From a virus, in IMG/VR virus record IMGVR_UViG_3300042691_008788, positions 1 through 64,000 of that record: a stretch of DNA of 64,000 bases; one strand, 5' to 3'. The notes under the pieces were generated by a model. It saw nothing but the letters and a program-made list of their open reading frames with translations. It was not told the DNA's origin and searched no databases. Below, one piece after another: positions 5,766 to 55,506 of this stretch; position 1 is the first letter of the stretch, and every line of letters starts with the position of its first letter. The position numbers and the translations under genes were made by a program.

Positions 5766-5840
5766 GCGCCGTGGGAGGTCTTGGCATCCTCAGTTCGATT
5801 TATAACCGAATAAGAGTTGGTTCGAATCCAACACGGCGTA
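5766..5840 (+). tRNA. tRNA-Ile (UAU)
   Basis: Acceptor GCGCCGT/ACGGCGT, T-arm GTTGG-TTCGAAT-CCAAC, anticodon loop TT-TAT-AA (one stem mismatch). Confidence 0.75.
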
Positions 5841-5909
5841 CTCAACATCATGAGTGAAACGAATCGCCACTCAGGTGTTTCAAACTTTGCGATTCAAAGG
5901 AGCATGTAG

Positions 5910-10667: not shown

Positions 10668-11213
10668 ATGAAGTCATACAGAGAATTCGTAACAGAGGCA
10701 GCATCCCGTTCCCTTTCCCGCCTACACAGCCATATTGAGCGTGGGCATATGGTAGGTTTCATCTCAGCAAGCCGTGGGAATCTTTCTCCCGCCGAGAACA
10801 ACAAGCGGACGAAGGCACTCAAGGCAAGCCTCAAGCAGCATGGATATACTCCTGTTCCTGTAAAGGGCGAGTACATCGAAGACCACAATGGAGAGAAGAA
10901 GAAGGTGAAGGAGAAGTCCTTCATGGTCCATTCAGGACAACCTGTTCAATGGTCAAGCAATCCAAACGCAGGACATGCCATCTTCTTGAAGAATCTCAAG
11001 AAGCACGGAGAGCAGTTTGGTCAAGACACCGTTCTTTCTGTTTCAAAGAAGCATGGTTCTGTGTTCCATGGAACGGGCAAGTCTGATTGGGTTCCCAAGG
11101 GTAAGAGAGCGCGTATTGGCGGGGCTGGTCTGAAGTCTGGTCCTGAGATTGAAAAGGGTGAGTTCAAGTCCCGACTGAAGAAGCGACCCTTCATCGTCGG
11201 TGGAGGTGACTGA
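10668..11213 (+). CDS. Probable internal head protein with capsid-targeting leader; DUF3293-like core
   Basis: MKSYREFVTE|A resembles the T4 IP leader MKTYQEFIAE; core GFISASR...ENN.R...L...GY.PV.G.Y.E...EKSF. Confidence 0.7.
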   Translation: MKSYREFVTEAASRSLSRLHSHIERGHMVGFISASRGNLSPAENNKRTKALKASLKQHGYTPVPVKGEYIEDHNGEKKKVKEKSFMVHSGQPVQWSSNPNAGHAIFLKNLKKHGEQFGQDTVLSVSKKHGSVFHGTGKSDWVPKGKRARIGGAGLKSGPEIEKGEFKSRLKKRPFIVGGGD

Positions 11214-27184: not shown

Positions 27185-27281
27185 TCACACGGTCAATCCA
27201 TATTTTTTCTACATATAAATGTCTTTCTAAAGGTAGAAATACCACTCAAATACAGAAACTTCAATAAGAAAATGGCATAAA

Positions 27282-27776
27282 ATGAGATACACAGAAGCAA
27301 GAGCAATCCTATCAGAAGCAATCGAACAACTTGATGAGACAAAACTTTTACAGAGACAAATATCTCCAGGACAACAAGGAGGCTCAACAAAGTTTTATCC
27401 GCGAGATGACCCGTCTTCTCCTTATCATTGGTACCCGACGAATGATGAGCCATTTGGACCATCGAAGTGGTTTCCGTTACCAGCCTATCCTGGTGATGCG
27501 CCACCTCCCCCAATAGATCTACGCAAGCCACCACCACCACTAAGGAGTCCAAAGGAACGACTACAGGATGAACAAGATAGAGCAAAGCGCAAAGACTATA
27601 ATGATACGCGACAGAGGGATCGATTAAGAGACTTTCGCAAAAAAATACAGGATGGATTAAACCAGAAACCATATCAAAGACCTTATGTGGCACCTTCTGG
27701 ACCTGGTGCGGGTTGGAATAATCCATATAGCCGCCCTTCTGAGCCTCCTCACCAAACTAGACCAGACTTTGACTAA
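27282..27776 (+). CDS. Pro/Arg-rich protein, paralog 1 with leader MRY..ARAILSEAIEQLDE
   Basis: Leader shared with 27803 and 28522. Confidence 0.8.
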   Translation: MRYTEARAILSEAIEQLDETKLLQRQISPGQQGGSTKFYPRDDPSSPYHWYPTNDEPFGPSKWFPLPAYPGDAPPPPIDLRKPPPPLRSPKERLQDEQDRAKRKDYNDTRQRDRLRDFRKKIQDGLNQKPYQRPYVAPSGPGAGWNNPYSRPSEPPHQTRPDFD

Positions 27777-27802
27777 TCAAACTTCTCAAAGGAAACAGGA
27801 AA

Positions 27803-28486
27803 ATGAGATACGAAACAGCAAGAGCAATCCTATCTGAAGCCATCGAACAGTTGGATGAGAAAGAACTCCTACAAAGACTTGTAGACCCAGGTGATAGCAC
27901 ATTTGAACGCTCGCGTGGAGGATCAAAAAAACCATCTAGCCCAGGCATATGGGGACCGCAGTATCGACCGTTAAGACCAGATCCATCGGAACCAGTTGTA
28001 TACCCTCCAGCCAACCCTCAACAAAAACTTCCACCAGTTTTTAGACCAGATTTTGAGGACAGTCCACAAACTCCAAGACCAAGAGATCCAGATCCAGAGT
28101 ATGGCAATCCTTTTAACCGCAAACCTTGGGGGTGGCAACCAGGCAAGCCTCTTGAAATTCGTCCACCTGTTTATAGCCCCGATGGTGATCTTATAAAACC
28201 TGCAATATTCCCGTGGACAGAACCACATAGACCTCTACCCCCACCTGAGAGCAGACCAGAAAGACCTTCAAGAATTCCCCGCCCACCCATAGGTGGGCAA
28301 CCAAGAGTTCCAGGTGTAAAGTATCCCAATGATGCGGGTGGTCTGCGTGGTCCATTAGATCCTATTGAAATCGAACGAAGACGCAATAATCTACAGCGTG
28401 ATCGTGAAAGGTTGAGAAGATTCCGTGATCAAGTGCGAGATGGATTAAACCAAAGACCATATCAAAGTCAACCGCGATTCAGATAA
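27803..28486 (+). CDS. Pro/Arg-rich protein, paralog 2
   Basis: Same leader; C-terminal RLR.FR....DGLNQ.PYQ shared with paralog 1. Confidence 0.8.
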   Translation: MRYETARAILSEAIEQLDEKELLQRLVDPGDSTFERSRGGSKKPSSPGIWGPQYRPLRPDPSEPVVYPPANPQQKLPPVFRPDFEDSPQTPRPRDPDPEYGNPFNRKPWGWQPGKPLEIRPPVYSPDGDLIKPAIFPWTEPHRPLPPPESRPERPSRIPRPPIGGQPRVPGVKYPNDAGGLRGPLDPIEIERRRNNLQRDRERLRRFRDQVRDGLNQRPYQSQPRFR

Positions 28487-28521
28487 TGTGGATAGCCTAG
28501 CATGATAAGAAAGAAGCAAAA

Positions 28522-28875
28522 ATGAGATACGAAGCAGCAAGAGCAATCCTATCTGAAGCCATCGAACAGTTGGATGAGTACAAATATATGCAGCCAGTGG
28601 ACCCCGTATACCCATTTGATCCTGCAAGAGATAAGTTCAATCCTAAGAAACACATGCATGATGTCTGGATGCCCGTTCCACCCACAGGAGTGGATCCAGG
28701 CTTACCACGCGTTCCACCAATAGACATTGGAAAACCACCACCACCAATGATGACTCCACAAGAAAGAGCGGAGGAAAGAAGGCAGGAAGGTATGAGGCGT
28801 TATCGTGGGGAAAGAATACTCCGTGACCGACTGAGAAAATTCGGTGATACAGTACGAGATGCATTACGCCGTTAG
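28522..28875 (+). CDS. Pro/Arg-rich protein, paralog 3
   Basis: Same leader; PPID..KPPPP...P.ER shared with paralog 1. Confidence 0.8.
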   Translation: MRYEAARAILSEAIEQLDEYKYMQPVDPVYPFDPARDKFNPKKHMHDVWMPVPPTGVDPGLPRVPPIDIGKPPPPMMTPQERAEERRQEGMRRYRGERILRDRLRKFGDTVRDALRR

Positions 28876-28915: not shown

Positions 28916-30235
28916 ATGAACAACCTATTCCTAAACCACCTAAACTCAATCACACCTCAAGGAAAAGCCAAAGATACATGCATCTTTGTTCCTGCAAGTG
29001 ATATTAATGAAGCCCCCAAGTATGTCCAAGATGCCATTCCCGCAGTCCCAAATCTTTACATGCTCACCTACAGTCCTGGTGAGAAGAATGAGACTCAGGG
29101 TGGAAGGAGGAAGTTCGTTGGTAAGATGAAGAAGAATCCTTCTATGGTCTATGAGGGTGCCTACAAGGGTGCCATGGAGGATTGGCTAACTGATCTTCCC
29201 AAGCCAGCGATTGCGGAACTCAAGGCAAAGCACGGGAAGGAACTTGCCCATACGGGTGGAGCGGGATACCGAGACATTGCCACCAAGAAGACCCTTCCAC
29301 TTCACAAGTCCATCGTCGGCATCCTGAAGAAGCACAAGGTCAAGCCATTTGCCCAAAACATCCATGACTCGTCCCATGTCATCCAGATGTCATTCCATAC
29401 CTTCCATGGTGACATGAATGAGGAGAAGCATGTGGATGATGAGGGTGGAATGGCAATGGGTGAACTCAAGTCTATTATTGCAAATGCTAATGACATCATG
29501 TCGATGCTAAAGTCTGATTCTCAACTTGAGGGATGGGTTCAGTCCAAGATTACGAAATCAGCAGATTACATTTCTTCAGTGAAAGACTACCTTTCCAATA
29601 CTCCAAATTCGATATCTGAAGAGGAGAAAAAGAAAGAAGAAAATGAAGAATCAACCAAGAGCATGATTGCTCGTCTTGTTGCTAGGGGTCACAAGAAACT
29701 TGGTAAAAAGATTCCCGATGATGTGATCCGCGATGTCGATCCAAAGTACAAGACCAAGGATGACATGTACGAAGCCGCACAAGAGATAGACAATCTTCCT
29801 CCAAGCGACAATCCATTTTGGCAAGGTAGTAGAACTAGAAAGCCATCTGATGGAAGACCAAATCTTTTTTGGAGAAGGAAAGTAAATCCTGGTAATGAAA
29901 TAGATGCTCTTGAGCCAAGAGGATCAAGAGATATTCGCTATTTTGAAGGACAGAGGCAGTTGAGAGATAGGCTTCCTTCAAATCCTCCTCCAAGTGTAGC
30001 AGAGGCAGCACCCGACATTGGACAGAACCTCAAGGGGATGCCAAAGAGGGCGGGTAGAAAACTTGCATATGCTTCCAAGAGGTGGGGCAAGGGCGAAATC
30101 CCATACAGCGAGTACAAGGTTGCGGATGAAAGACACACCCGCAAGATGGGTGGAAATGCAAGACGAATTGGAAAGAATCTTGACCAAGCCGTGACAGACT
30201 TCATCTCAAGGAAGCCAAGACGAAAGCGAAGATGA
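28916..30235 (+). CDS. Putative head-packaged polyprotein
   Basis: Leader MNN.FL.HL.SITPQGKA shared with 34526; repeated hydrophobic-X-E|(A/G/E/S) junctions; contains the conserved EG.MA...L....LEGWVQSKITK.ADY module. Confidence 0.75.
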   Translation: MNNLFLNHLNSITPQGKAKDTCIFVPASDINEAPKYVQDAIPAVPNLYMLTYSPGEKNETQGGRRKFVGKMKKNPSMVYEGAYKGAMEDWLTDLPKPAIAELKAKHGKELAHTGGAGYRDIATKKTLPLHKSIVGILKKHKVKPFAQNIHDSSHVIQMSFHTFHGDMNEEKHVDDEGGMAMGELKSIIANANDIMSMLKSDSQLEGWVQSKITKSADYISSVKDYLSNTPNSISEEEKKKEENEESTKSMIARLVARGHKKLGKKIPDDVIRDVDPKYKTKDDMYEAAQEIDNLPPSDNPFWQGSRTRKPSDGRPNLFWRRKVNPGNEIDALEPRGSRDIRYFEGQRQLRDRLPSNPPPSVAEAAPDIGQNLKGMPKRAGRKLAYASKRWGKGEIPYSEYKVADERHTRKMGGNARRIGKNLDQAVTDFISRKPRRKRR

Positions 30236-30240
30236 GTTAG

Positions 30241-30549
30241 ATGAAATCATTCAATCAGTTCATTTCCGAAAGTTCAGAAAGACTTGTGAAGATTAAGCAG
30301 TCTGGTCATTCTGCAAACATCCGCAAGATTGATGACAACACATCCATGTTCTCTCATCGTGGTGTGGTCGGTCATGTGACCAAGGCATGGAACCGCATGG
30401 GTGGTTGGGGGTATCAGGCGGGGAACATCCGCGTGAATGGTAAGGATGTCGGTCTTCCCGTGATCCATGGAACACACAAGACCATGAATGATGCCATTCA
30501 CAATGCCTATCAGCACACGATGTGGCACATGTCCAAGGGGAAGAAATGA
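30241..30549 (+). CDS. Internal head protein-like (capsid-targeting leader)
   Basis: MKSFNQFISE|S. Confidence 0.75.
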   Translation: MKSFNQFISESSERLVKIKQSGHSANIRKIDDNTSMFSHRGVVGHVTKAWNRMGGWGYQAGNIRVNGKDVGLPVIHGTHKTMNDAIHNAYQHTMWHMSKGKK

Positions 30550-30914
30550 AGTCCTTCATGCAGTTCATTTCAGAGCAGAATGAGAACACGATCAATGACT
30601 TCGTGCAGTTCGCTGCACAGGAACTTGGCTTGCAGACCACTCCAAGCATCAGGTTGTTGCAGTCGCGTGAGAATGGCATGACCACGGCATCCTATTGCCC
30701 CGAGGACAAGAGCATCAAGGTATTGTGTGGCAACAGAGCCACATTTGACATTTGCAGATCCATTGCACATGAGTTGGTGCATCAGATGCAGGATGAGAAT
30801 GGCGATGAACTCGACGGAGAGACGGGATCACCATGCGAGGATGAAGCCAATGCACTCGCGGGTAGGTTGATTCGCACCTATGGCGGCAACAATGCTGGCT
30901 TCTATGAGGAATAA
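30546..30914 (+). CDS. HExxH metallopeptidase with capsid-targeting leader
   Basis: MKSFMQFISE|Q; RSIAHELVH.MQ...EDEANA. Confidence 0.8.
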   Translation: MKSFMQFISEQNENTINDFVQFAAQELGLQTTPSIRLLQSRENGMTTASYCPEDKSIKVLCGNRATFDICRSIAHELVHQMQDENGDELDGETGSPCEDEANALAGRLIRTYGGNNAGFYEE

Positions 30915-30917
30915 GAG

Positions 30918-31421
30918 ATGAAGACCTACGAACAGTTCATTGCAGAGGCAATGGAAATAAAGAATCTTTCCGAGAATTGGTCATATGCTCATGATTTTGA
31001 TGAGATGCCGAACTCAGAGAAGCAGAAGTATGTCTACCATGTCACAACGGCAGCAAGGGCAGCAAAGATTGTCAAGCATGGTCTGAAGCCACGCAGTCCA
31101 AAGGGTCGCACCAACTACCCAGGCAACAAGGAATACACCCAAGGTCATGCATTCGTGACCAATCATCAAGGTGTGCGCTATTGGAAGGATCAGACGCTTC
31201 ATGCAGTGAATCGACGCAAGCGCGAGGTGGATGAAAGAGACTACGAAAACATCCATGTGGTAAAGTTCCCAATCTCAAATCTCGCAAAGTCCACAAAAAG
31301 AAAGTTCACGACCGATCAACTTGGCACCAAGGATGCAAGGAAACATGATGATGATCCACTCATTGATCCATCAAGTCATGAAGGATCCACCGCATTCAGG
31401 ATTCGAAAGAAAGTCCGCTGA
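30918..31421 (+). CDS. ADP-ribosyltransferase-like (YHxT...GL) protein with capsid-targeting leader
   Basis: MKTYEQFIAE|A, near-identical to the T4 leader; YVYHVT....KIVKHGLKP...AFVT resembles the ART/Tpt1 strand-1 motif. Confidence 0.65.
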   Translation: MKTYEQFIAEAMEIKNLSENWSYAHDFDEMPNSEKQKYVYHVTTAARAAKIVKHGLKPRSPKGRTNYPGNKEYTQGHAFVTNHQGVRYWKDQTLHAVNRRKREVDERDYENIHVVKFPISNLAKSTKRKFTTDQLGTKDARKHDDDPLIDPSSHEGSTAFRIRKKVR

Positions 31422-31568: not shown

Positions 31569-33728
31569 ATGAATACCATTACAATAACCAAGATAGAAGA
31601 AGCATCCGCACCCAATAAGGGCAAGGCATTTCTCCTTGCTGGATCGTTCAGTCCATACACGGTTGGACACCATGAGGTTGCACGACAAGCCGCTGAACAT
31701 GCTAAAGGTACAGGTCATACGCACTTCTACCATGGCATCGGTGGTGCGGCAAAGCAGACGCACGACGATCCATTGACACACGCACAGAAGAGATCCATTG
31801 TCCGTGCTGGTCACAGAGAACTCGCAAAGGAACACAAAGGGTTGAAGTTCCGTGCGATGGGATCGGAGCAAAGAGATCCATTCAGGCAACTTGCACACCT
31901 CGCGCAGAGGGGTCACAAGCACATCACGGTTGGTCTTGGCTCCGATCAGATGAAAGGCAAGTTGAAAAGGGAAATAGAGGGCAGCATTGCAAAAAAGGGT
32001 GGCATTGAGGACAAGACGGGAAAGATCCACAAGGTCAGGGTGGACTTCCATCAACTTGGTGGAGAGAGACACGAAGGAGAGATGCCACGACATGAGGTGT
32101 TGAGTAGATTGAGGAAGGGAGACATCAGCGTTGCAAAGGCTGGTCGTCTTCGCAAGGCGGTTGCATCTGGTGATACAGAACTAGCACATGAACTCATGCC
32201 AAAGCACATGAATAAGCCAAAGTACTTCGGCATGATCAAGTCCGCACAATCGAAGATAGCAAAGCCAAAGAAGAAGGTGGTGAAAGAAGGCTACATGTCC
32301 TTCGCTGAGTTTGTTTCGGAGGACATCGAACTGATTCCCGTAACTAGAGATAGAGATGCAGGGAAGCCAAGGAAAGCAGAGGTTGTCCACAAGGACTATG
32401 GAACGAAGACCTACTCATCCGACAAGGTTGTGACTCGAAAGAATCATGGAGAGATTCATCCTGGTTACGAACTTCATCAGCACTCCGTCGAGATGGACAA
32501 CAACAGACCGAGTGGACCACAAAGGATTGTGAAGCACAAGTTCACGATAGTACACAAGGCAAGCGGAGATATCGCTGGAGAAATGCACGCTTGGGGTGGC
32601 AAACTTCATCCGAAGAAGGGCGTTGTGTTTGGGTCAAAAGGCAAGGCACTGAAGGTATCTCATCTTGAGATGCATCCCGAACACGGCAGCAAGAAGGTCG
32701 GAGCATCTTTGCCCGTTGAAATGTACAGACATCTTCATAGAAGAGGACATGCCATTCAATCTGATTCAGTACAGAGCCACGGTGGAGCGCATGTGTGGAA
32801 CACAATGCGTAATGATCGTGAACTCAAGAAGCACATGATGATCCATGATGATGACAAGGTAGACACGAAGCAAAAACATGCATTTCAGACTCGCGCATAT
32901 AGAAGACCAGAGAGACACATTTGGCACCAGTTCAGCAGAAGTTGGAGTGGCGGAAGAGATAATCCATCAAAGGTAGAACCAGAGTATGGAGTTGATCCCG
33001 ACTTCAAGAGGACATTGATTCTTGCTGGTAAGAAGCGCAAGAAGAAGCCCGCTGTTGTATCGGAAGACATTGAGATGGCTGATATTCTTGTAAAGCCGAA
33101 GAGCGGTGGACTGAGTCCACGAAACTTTGAGAAGATGGTCGCACACAAAGGGTTGAAGCCAAAGAGATCTGGTAAGATTGCAAAGGGATACACTCTCTAC
33201 ACATCGGTTGATGCAACACATCCCGAATTTGAAGATCACCATATCGTGCATGATGCAACAGGACATGTTGCGGGTGAAGTTTCGACTCGCACATCTGGCA
33301 ACGACCACACGGTCATTCACACAGATGTTCATGGAGATCACACACAGAAAGTAATAGGAAAATCCCTTGCCGTGCTTGCATATAAGCACCTTGCAAAGAA
33401 GAAGGGAAACCTACACAGCAGCAGTCTACAGAGTCCTGGTGGTGCATCCATATGGAATAGACTTCGCAAGAATCCAAAGATGAAGGGTCAGGTCTTTCAT
33501 AAGATGAGAGGACAGGCAGAGGTTCCTGCACACGATCTACCCGATAAGAAGATATGGGCAACAGATGTCAAAGGTGGAATGTCATCATCCAACAAAGATA
33601 TTCCAAAGCCTCTTCCTCCATCGAAGCATCATGCCGCAGAGCATGAAAATGTGATAGGATCGCGTCTTGTGATCAGACCCATAAAAAAGACTAAATATAA
33701 AAGTACCAAAACAGGAGAAACAAAATGA
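31569..33728 (+). CDS. Multidomain protein: cytidylyltransferase-like (HIGH-type) domain plus two GNAT-like domains
   Basis: GSFSPYTVGH...DPL...GSD; two copies of H.(E/D)...G....Y.HL......S...QS.GG...WN; domains separated by SE|DIE. Confidence 0.65.
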   Translation: MNTITITKIEEASAPNKGKAFLLAGSFSPYTVGHHEVARQAAEHAKGTGHTHFYHGIGGAAKQTHDDPLTHAQKRSIVRAGHRELAKEHKGLKFRAMGSEQRDPFRQLAHLAQRGHKHITVGLGSDQMKGKLKREIEGSIAKKGGIEDKTGKIHKVRVDFHQLGGERHEGEMPRHEVLSRLRKGDISVAKAGRLRKAVASGDTELAHELMPKHMNKPKYFGMIKSAQSKIAKPKKKVVKEGYMSFAEFVSEDIELIPVTRDRDAGKPRKAEVVHKDYGTKTYSSDKVVTRKNHGEIHPGYELHQHSVEMDNNRPSGPQRIVKHKFTIVHKASGDIAGEMHAWGGKLHPKKGVVFGSKGKALKVSHLEMHPEHGSKKVGASLPVEMYRHLHRRGHAIQSDSVQSHGGAHVWNTMRNDRELKKHMMIHDDDKVDTKQKHAFQTRAYRRPERHIWHQFSRSWSGGRDNPSKVEPEYGVDPDFKRTLILAGKKRKKKPAVVSEDIEMADILVKPKSGGLSPRNFEKMVAHKGLKPKRSGKIAKGYTLYTSVDATHPEFEDHHIVHDATGHVAGEVSTRTSGNDHTVIHTDVHGDHTQKVIGKSLAVLAYKHLAKKKGNLHSSSLQSPGGASIWNRLRKNPKMKGQVFHKMRGQAEVPAHDLPDKKIWATDVKGGMSSSNKDIPKPLPPSKHHAAEHENVIGSRLVIRPIKKTKYKSTKTGETK

Positions 33729-54840: not shown

Positions 54841-55506
54841 TTAGCGGCGACGACGGCCAACAAGACCCGCCATGCCAAGAAGAGCGATTGCTCCTGGTGA
54901 TGGAGCAGAAAGAACAAATGCCCCACCCGCTGTGCTTCCAATCGACGGTGGAAGCGGATGCCAAGAACCCCATCCACCAGGTCCGAATGGACTGGTCTGC
55001 CAGAATCCCGCTGTGTTCTCTCCCTGCGACCATACGAACTGATCCCCAGCAGCATCATTGAGAAGAACACCGATGTTCATGAAATATGAACCCGCTGCAA
55101 TCTCAAATGCAAGAGGAACATAGAACTCATATACAGGTTGACCAAAGAAGTTTTCATCTCCAGTCGGTGTTGCGGTGATATTTGTCATGCTGATCTTGGT
55201 TGAGAAAACCTGATCGCTGAAATCATCATTCCAAACAACGACCTGAAATGCATAGAAGTTTGTGATTCCCTGATCATTGAAACCATTGGACGAACCCCAC
55301 CAACGAAGCGAGGATGTCGTATAGGAATCCTCAAGGGAGAATGCCTGTGCGCCACTTTGTGCATAGGTATATGTTCCCTTTGAATTGAATGCGTCAGAAT
55401 AGAATCCAACCGTGTCTGCCACTGGATTGTTCACAACTACAAATTCTGCCTTTGCTACCGAGCCACACATCACGGCTGCTACCAAACCAACAATAAAATT
55501 CTTCAT
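54841..55506 (-). CDS. PEP-CTERM (PAPG-type) exosortase-sorted surface protein
   Basis: Signal peptide ending AKA; C-terminus APSPGAIALLGMAGLVGRRRR. Confidence 0.9.
   Translation of the reverse strand: MKNFIVGLVAAVMCGSVAKAEFVVVNNPVADTVGFYSDAFNSKGTYTYAQSGAQAFSLEDSYTTSSLRWWGSSNGFNDQGITNFYAFQVVVWNDDFSDQVFSTKISMTNITATPTGDENFFGQPVYEFYVPLAFEIAAGSYFMNIGVLLNDAAGDQFVWSQGENTAGFWQTSPFGPGGWGSWHPLPPSIGSTAGGAFVLSAPSPGAIALLGMAGLVGRRRR

Follow-up and report, generated by a model that had tools for sequence, protein, structure and literature searches.

Three neighbouring genes of a T4-like phage begin with almost the same DNA and then part into dissimilar, proline-rich proteins, which raises the question of what such a constant start and such variable bodies could be for. 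The genes lie in the window analysed here, the first 64 kb of a single 156,618-nt contig (phage genome of 156.6 kb), and all positions below are those of this window. On balance, with confidence little better than even, we read them from their sequences as internal head proteins held in a hypervariable cassette slot, which would be injected as counter-defence cargo in the manner of T4 Ip1-3. Injected head proteins are a phage's first move against host defences, and all three T4 internal proteins are now known to be defence inhibitors.

Three paralogous genes with near-identical starts

The genome encodes a T4-type terminase, portal, prohead protease, scaffold and major capsid protein (gp20-23 are present, with Pfam matches to Gp23, T4_CASP, Peptidase_S77 and Portal_T4), as well as gp33. 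Its major capsid protein is about 55% identical to the capsid proteins of Pelagibacter, Methylophilales and Synechococcus myoviruses. The gp21 head protease is intact: His73, Ser126 and Asp152 of the gene product (genome 111875-112522) align with T4 gp21 H85, S140 and D168, the catalytic triad of that enzyme.

That three genes share near-identical starts, as the original prediction held, was borne out: the ORFs were confirmed, 17 of the first 19 residues are identical across the three paralogs (Table 1), and a DNA repeat, D1, starts at 27279, 27800 and 28519. The mosaic blocks described there likewise correspond to repeats, D2 being shared by paralogs 1 and 2 and D3 by paralogs 1 and 3, and every motif quoted is present. 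A leader HMM run over the 156.6-kb genome detected exactly three copies, at 42-46 bits, the next best match scoring 6 bits. Since this region recurs in seven other assemblies, 99.9-100% identical wherever they cover it, the repeated arrangement is no assembly artefact. A population variant of paralog 2 (P0011) lacks four residues just before the C-terminus.

An antisense ORF of 177 aa (27193-27726, -) overlaps paralog 1, is often chosen over it by gene callers, and is open in the relative L001 too. We rejected this ORF as a shadow; the differences between the paralogs fall mostly at third positions of the + frame, and the + strand gene is therefore real.

Upstream of paralog 1 we noted a late-promoter-like element, whose function we infer from motif and position. 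Of 56 occurrences of the hexamer TAAATA, 20 stand 8-80 nt 5' of an ORF, as compared with 4 of 77 for the control TAAATG, and relatives keep the position of the site upstream of paralog 1, with this motif or the consensus one (ATAAATA in L002, CTACATA in L005 and L006).

The three paralogs come first in a series of genes on the + strand, and T4-type capsid-targeting 10-mers stand at the start of three genes in this series; the gene starting at 30918 carries the T4 IpII/IpIII 10-mer at 8 of 10 positions. In the cargo cluster, the genes 30546-30914, 30918-31421 and 31569-33728 (all +) gave weak matches to a metallopeptidase (PF06114, E 8e-4), an ART-like domain (PF00644, E 0.02) and a cytidyltransferase (phrog_395), and their products are candidate packaged enzymes. 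A separate gene at 10668-11213 (+) has a T4-type capsid-targeting start and a weak match to an 'internal head protein' PHROG (E 1e-3).

Table 1. Features of the three-paralog locus, with the basis on which each was assigned.
Feature	Position	Strand	Description	Basis
Paralog 1	27282-27776	+	164 aa; leader, disordered Pro-rich segment, long helix, Pro-rich tail	ORF, alignment, AF2
Paralog 2	27803-28486	+	227 aa; longest Pro-rich segment of the three	ORF, alignment, AF2
Paralog 3	28522-28875	+	117 aa; terminates at the helix	ORF, alignment
Leader 1	27282-27338	+	19 aa, predicted helical, net acidic; L-x-E sites E12 and E19	Motif scan, AF2
Leader 2	27803-27859	+		Its DNA differs from leader 3 at 1 nt and from leader 1 at 9 nt
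Leader 3	28522-28578	+		Motif scan, DNA comparison
Paralog 1 charged helix	27549-27662	+	Residues 90-127, ending in conserved amphipathic segment 114-127	AF2 (pLDDT ~90), hydrophobic moment
Paralog 2 helix	28361-28450	+	Residues 187-216	AF2; hydrophobic moment 0.63-0.73
Paralog 3 helix	28756-28872	+	Residues 79-117	Alignment to paralog 1; hydrophobic moment 0.77-0.89
Late-promoter-like site	27209-27221	+	CTACATA and overlapping TATAAAT, ~70 nt 5' of paralog 1	Motif, position in relatives
Downstream modular protein	28916-30235	+	Different N-terminus	Same body found in relatives behind a 19-aa or 12-aa leader (L001:1237, P0027)
Three genes with canonical T4 capsid-targeting 10-mer starts	30241-31421	+		N-terminal comparison

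One leader heads many unrelated cargos

A leader search had been suggested by the original prediction as a gauge of copy number and core diversity. The leader profile (query 40 aa) found 34 proteins, which together with those of fetched loci made up 39 analysed proteins, some of them near-duplicates. The same leader heads all 39, in this genome and its relatives, at the same locus and in 1-4 copies per genome as counted on contigs that show the locus, some of which are incomplete; wherever the contig shows it, the leader genes lie just downstream of an FmdB-like Zn-ribbon gene. Scans of viral and metagenome contigs with the proteins or with leader DNA patterns yielded nothing that could be confirmed.

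Most of the cargos are unrelated to one another. Pro-rich cargos (at least 15% Pro) occur in 6 of the 39 proteins, and the remainder are unrelated Lys/Arg-rich modules that recur in varied combinations; between modules stand copies of the leader tail, a putative L-x-E cleavage junction, as a polyprotein released by a protease would require. More than 12 distinct modules were found, none with a convincing family match. In the L001 orthologue of the downstream modular protein (28916), a short form of the leader, ending at E12, replaces the different N-terminus.

A second leader type of ~32-40 aa, ending in I/L-x-E, heads the genes at 28916 and 34526 (+) and, in L006:17645, precedes another cargo. 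In the 28916 ORF, residues 287-363 (29774-30004, +) form a Pro-richer module between protease-type junctions; this module is absent from the L001 and P0027 orthologues, and its brief RLRDRL-type resemblance to paralog 3 was of borderline strength when compared with shuffled sequences (5/300). In a close relative, a GIY-YIG endonuclease-like gene (L036:3146-3724, -) separates the Zn-ribbon gene from the first of the leader genes, and could assist movement of the slot between phages.

Distances at the leader, at the cargo and at the adjacent FmdB gene do not tell the same history. At the DNA level, a single nucleotide separates leader 1 from its counterpart on a gene with an unrelated cargo (L002:6001), as against 8-9 nt for the neighbouring leaders 2 and 3, which are themselves 1 nt apart. 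Three phages that stand well apart at the adjacent FmdB gene (pS 0.54-0.79) share one basic module almost unchanged (pS 0-0.03), and the nearest relatives of the present phage (FmdB pS 0.09-0.12) carry wholly different cargos, with none of the three cores in the stretch covered. Because these distances are discordant, leader and cargo have separate histories and, judging by the sequences compared, leaders and cargos are swapped between phages. Recombination within near-identical leader and junction DNA is most likely the simplest cause of cargo duplication, fusion and swapping; in T4-type phages, recombination between conserved cassettes is documented (PMC2839356).

Composition and evolution of the cores

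Downstream of the leaders, the cores measure 145, 208 and 98 aa and contain 19, 22 and 17% Pro, respectively, as compared with a median of 4% among the ORFs of the genome. Their net charges of +7, +12 and +7 come mostly from the helix. The original prediction had described cores rich in both Pro and Arg; the richness in Pro held, but the two residues turned out to lie largely in separate segments. The Pro-rich segments (25-28% Pro, 3-10% Arg) are near-neutral, with net charges of +1 to +5, and Arg is concentrated in the C-terminal helix, largely apart from them. For paralogs 1 and 2, AF2 predicted disorder throughout the Pro-rich segment, then a single helix modelled with confidence, and no globular fold (pTM 0.27 and 0.23, respectively).

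The cores are homologous to one another above shuffled sequences (z 4.9-12.9, 0/300), and the conserved parts are the helix, amphipathic over its final 14 residues, and a short run of Pro. In paralog 1 the hydrophobic moment of this conserved amphipathic segment (0.57-0.66) is the highest in the protein. Homology beyond shuffles was not detected between the other Pro-rich cargos (P0018, P0032, P0034 and the insert of 28916) and the cores. The three proteins had no family or defence-model match in PHROGs (one match at E=0.03), Pfam or PADLOC, and comparison with GenBank phages and the ESM Atlas found nothing.

A profile search of 1.84 billion representatives returned one outside homologue of the cores, P0004 (L001:260-703), an orthologue of paralog 1; another candidate, P0007, was rejected as a repeat artefact. 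Comparison of core 1 with P0004 over 86 codons gave pN 0.21 and pS 0.16, as against pN 0.01-0.03 and pS 0.19-0.33 for the flanking genes of the same genome pair, so that the amino-acid sequence of core 1 evolves ~12-fold faster than its flanks (pN 0.21 vs 0.02; p = 1e-18, Fisher). The dN/dS of the whole core 1 was ~1.3, which is not significantly above 1 (p = 0.21), and a 38-codon block reached ~3 (p = 0.014), the block having been chosen post hoc. Diversifying selection on core 1 is thus suggested, and relaxed constraint fits these values equally well.

Cores that diverge in this way might be packaged and trimmed and nevertheless be generic, i.e., cationic disordered polymers that neutralise or space DNA or ease assembly or ejection, with composition mattering and sequence hardly. 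We regard this as unlikely, if the best-surviving of the alternatives. It is in line with the net positive charge of all 39 cargos despite their unrelated sequences, with a whole-core dN/dS near 1, and with Pro-rich segments that have no homology to each other detectable by shuffle comparison; in addition, the T4 internal proteins bind DNA, and IPIII helps head assembly (PMC9026906, PMC3012670). However, the net charge of the Pro-rich cargos is near the bottom of the family's range (4-7 per 100 aa, as compared with 10-18 for most other cargos), and all four homologues retain the helix motif, with a dN/dS between paralogs of ~0.35. The recent spread of a module over divergent phages also suggests selection for particular cargos, and T4 IpII and IpIII, long without a known role, turned out to be specific inhibitors (PMC12373910).

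The leader as a probable head-protease-type propeptide

The T4 gp21 protease cleaves after L/I-X-E, and the T4 internal proteins carry propeptides of 10-19 aa that target them to the prohead core (PMC9026906). Each of the three paralogs contains exactly two gp21-type L-x-E sites, at E12 and E19, both within the leader. Among the 24 leaders compared, E19 is invariant, L/I17 nearly invariant and residue 18 variable, a conservation that is partly ascertained, the relatives having been gathered with the leader profile. The leader is predicted by AF2 to be helical in paralogs 1 and 2.

The 451 residues of the three cores contain no gp21-type site, as compared with 3.7 expected under a broad motif (P = 0.014) or 1.9 under the strict L/I-x-E motif (P = 0.13). 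The scaffold gp22 has 33 such sites (8.8 per 100 aa). The lack of further sites speaks tentatively against degradation of the cores in the manner of scaffold, which the original prediction had named among the outcomes that would refute it, and does so more clearly under the broad motif than under the strict one; the cores are basic, unlike the acidic, multiply cut scaffold and core proteins (gp22, gp67, gp68).

These features make it very probable that the leader works as a capsid-targeting propeptide, though one unrelated in sequence to that of T4. Searched against T4 IpI-III, gp22, gp23, gp24 and gp68, the leader HMM found nothing above noise. Because it has no HMM similarity to the T4 10-mer, we file the leader as a variant that, as read from its sequence, acts like the T4 capsid-targeting sequence (CTS) and lies outside that family. 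Derivation of the leader from T4 gp67 was unsupported (2.9 bits, E 15), and a structure prediction for a complex of the leader with gp22 scored 0.00, which gives no answer either way. The reading put forward originally, that of a processed leader before variable cargos that are packaged and probably injected, draws support by inference from the gp21-type sites, from the canonical capsid-targeting starts nearby and from the unrelated cargos in relatives.

Alternatively, the leader could be a translation-start cassette or some other processing signal (a RiPP leader or an export signal), with the proteins acting in the cell that produces them. Repeated 5' ends could spread simply by giving good expression, and a leader with no match to the T4 capsid-targeting sequence is compatible with such a role. 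Nevertheless, constraint on the leader is at the protein level (dN/dS 0.15-0.28), its L-x-E tail recurs inside polyproteins, where a translation start is needless, and it is acidic and lacks a hydrophobic stretch. The neighbouring genes matched only a Zn-ribbon regulator and, weakly, an M78 peptidase and the ART and cytidyltransferase profiles; no match was to a RiPP-type enzyme or an exporter. We consider a leader without a packaging role very unlikely.

Proposed route into the next host and possible modes of action

As a capsid-targeting propeptide, the leader would act in the following sequence of events. The proteins would be synthesised late, and in all probability the helical leader would bind the prohead core and carry its protein into the head. 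With the same high confidence, gp21 would then cut after E12 and E19, and the intact cationic cores would stay with the DNA. Ejection of the largely disordered cores into the next host along with the genome is likely, if less firmly so. Whether they then serve in counter-defence or host interaction, as T4 Ip1-3 do, is about an even bet for the route as a whole. The conserved amphipathic helix would most plausibly bind a host protein, and the Pro-rich segments may be extended spacers or surfaces for short motifs. In T4, the leader is the only thing common to Ip1-3, each of which blocks a different GmrSD nuclease (PMC12373910), a pattern that by analogy matches the architecture and turnover of the three paralogs.

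A bolder version, in which a second, sequence-unrelated capsid-targeting tag would be the recombination hinge by which the phage lineage builds and exchanges a library of disordered injected peptides, strikes us as quite doubtful. The cores, Pro-rich with a helix, would there be diversifying disordered inhibitors of a host machine and, at the extreme of translation or chaperones, the first phage counterpart of proline-rich antimicrobial peptides (PrAMPs).

The helix could also be taken as the active part in itself, an amphipathic cationic element that acts on membranes or LPS at DNA entry or lysis, with the Pro-rich part as a stalk. In each of the three paralogs the hydrophobic moment of the conserved 14-mer, which has a net charge of +3, indeed ranks at or near the top, and the best PDB match of the three proteins is a helical peptide, CAP18 (E 1.1). 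This match, however, is non-significant and reflects helix periodicity; hydrophobic residues are scarce in the helix, which also contains no membrane-spanning segment. Furthermore, the element is confined to four known proteins, and therefore does not serve a core entry function. We hold an action on membranes to be slightly less probable still than a leader without a packaging role.

Least probable of all is a PrAMP-like action, proposed by the original prediction, in which the cores would enter the ribosome exit tunnel or bind DnaK. PrAMPs are defined as cationic peptides of at least 25% Pro with an intracellular target (PMC7736402), and those of class I share the consensus (R/K)xx(R/Y)LPRPR (PMC11484942). 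The cores resemble oncocin, Bac7, apidaecin and drosocin in their high Pro content, net positive charge and constant-pro-region architecture; Pro content rises to 25-28% when the Pro-rich segments are taken by themselves, some 19-residue windows of paralog 2 combine 5 or more Pro with a net charge of at least +3, the same protein contains two PRP motifs, and its C-terminus, PRFR, loosely resembles the ends of class II peptides (PMC7736402). Unlike these peptides, the whole cores are 3-10 times longer and hold less than 25% Pro (17-22%), their Arg lies in the helix, which is the only conserved element, the class I consensus is absent from all three and PRP from paralogs 1 and 3, and no protease site would free a peptide of 15-40 aa, so that release of the Pro-rich sub-segments is not predicted. 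Neither the new N-termini of the cores nor their C-termini are Pro-Arg-like or conserved, a PDB search up to E 10 returned no peptide of this kind, 33 of the 39 leader cargos are not Pro-rich, and we found no phage precedent. An early block of ribosomes would also presumably harm a phage that depends on host ribosomes and carries 11 tRNA genes in the window.

Relation to known systems

The counter-defence reading has its closest parallel in the T4 internal proteins IpI-III and their CTS, where a short N-terminal propeptide of 10-19 aa, ending in L/I-X-E, likewise precedes unrelated basic proteins (PMC9026906, PMC12373910), and where, as in the ip loci of T-even phages, a gp21-type protease is encoded in the genome and a variable gene set occupies a fixed locus. 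Unlike the T4 CTS, the leader described here is unrelated in sequence to the 10-mer, coexists with canonical 10-mers in one cluster, and has its tail reused as an internal polyprotein junction. The cores differ as well: T4 IpI is a compact folded domain, whereas those described here are predicted to be mostly disordered, Pro-rich and with one helix.

Two other phage systems share part of this architecture. The SPN3US gp53/gp54 and phiKZ gp93 families consist of paralogous head proteins that begin with the same residues and whose propeptides are cleaved at two or more Glu sites (PMC5694885), but they are large and conserved (PF12699) and have long propeptides, whereas the cargos here are small, unrelated and exchanged. 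Phage polyvalent proteins also combine modules in one chain that are predicted to be packaged, delivered and proteolytically released (PMC5512222); theirs, however, are folded enzyme domains with an embedded peptidase, in contrast to the short basic or Pro-rich modules and head-protease-type junctions found here.

The principle of tag-loaded head cargo is already known from T4. To this the leader would add, as a candidate, a second tag by which proteins could be brought into T4-type heads; as a packaging tag it would also serve as a query for finding the unannotated cargos that an uncultivated lineage carries.

Two further features of the window lie away from the locus. ARAGORN predicted a tRNA-Ile with a TAT anticodon, unusual for bacteria and phages, at 5766-5841 (+). 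The product of 54841-55506 (-) had no family or genome match, and a host search with the gene found nothing; the protein has a signal-peptide-like start and a PEP-CTERM-like C-terminal anchor, which presumably hints at a Planctomycetota-type host.
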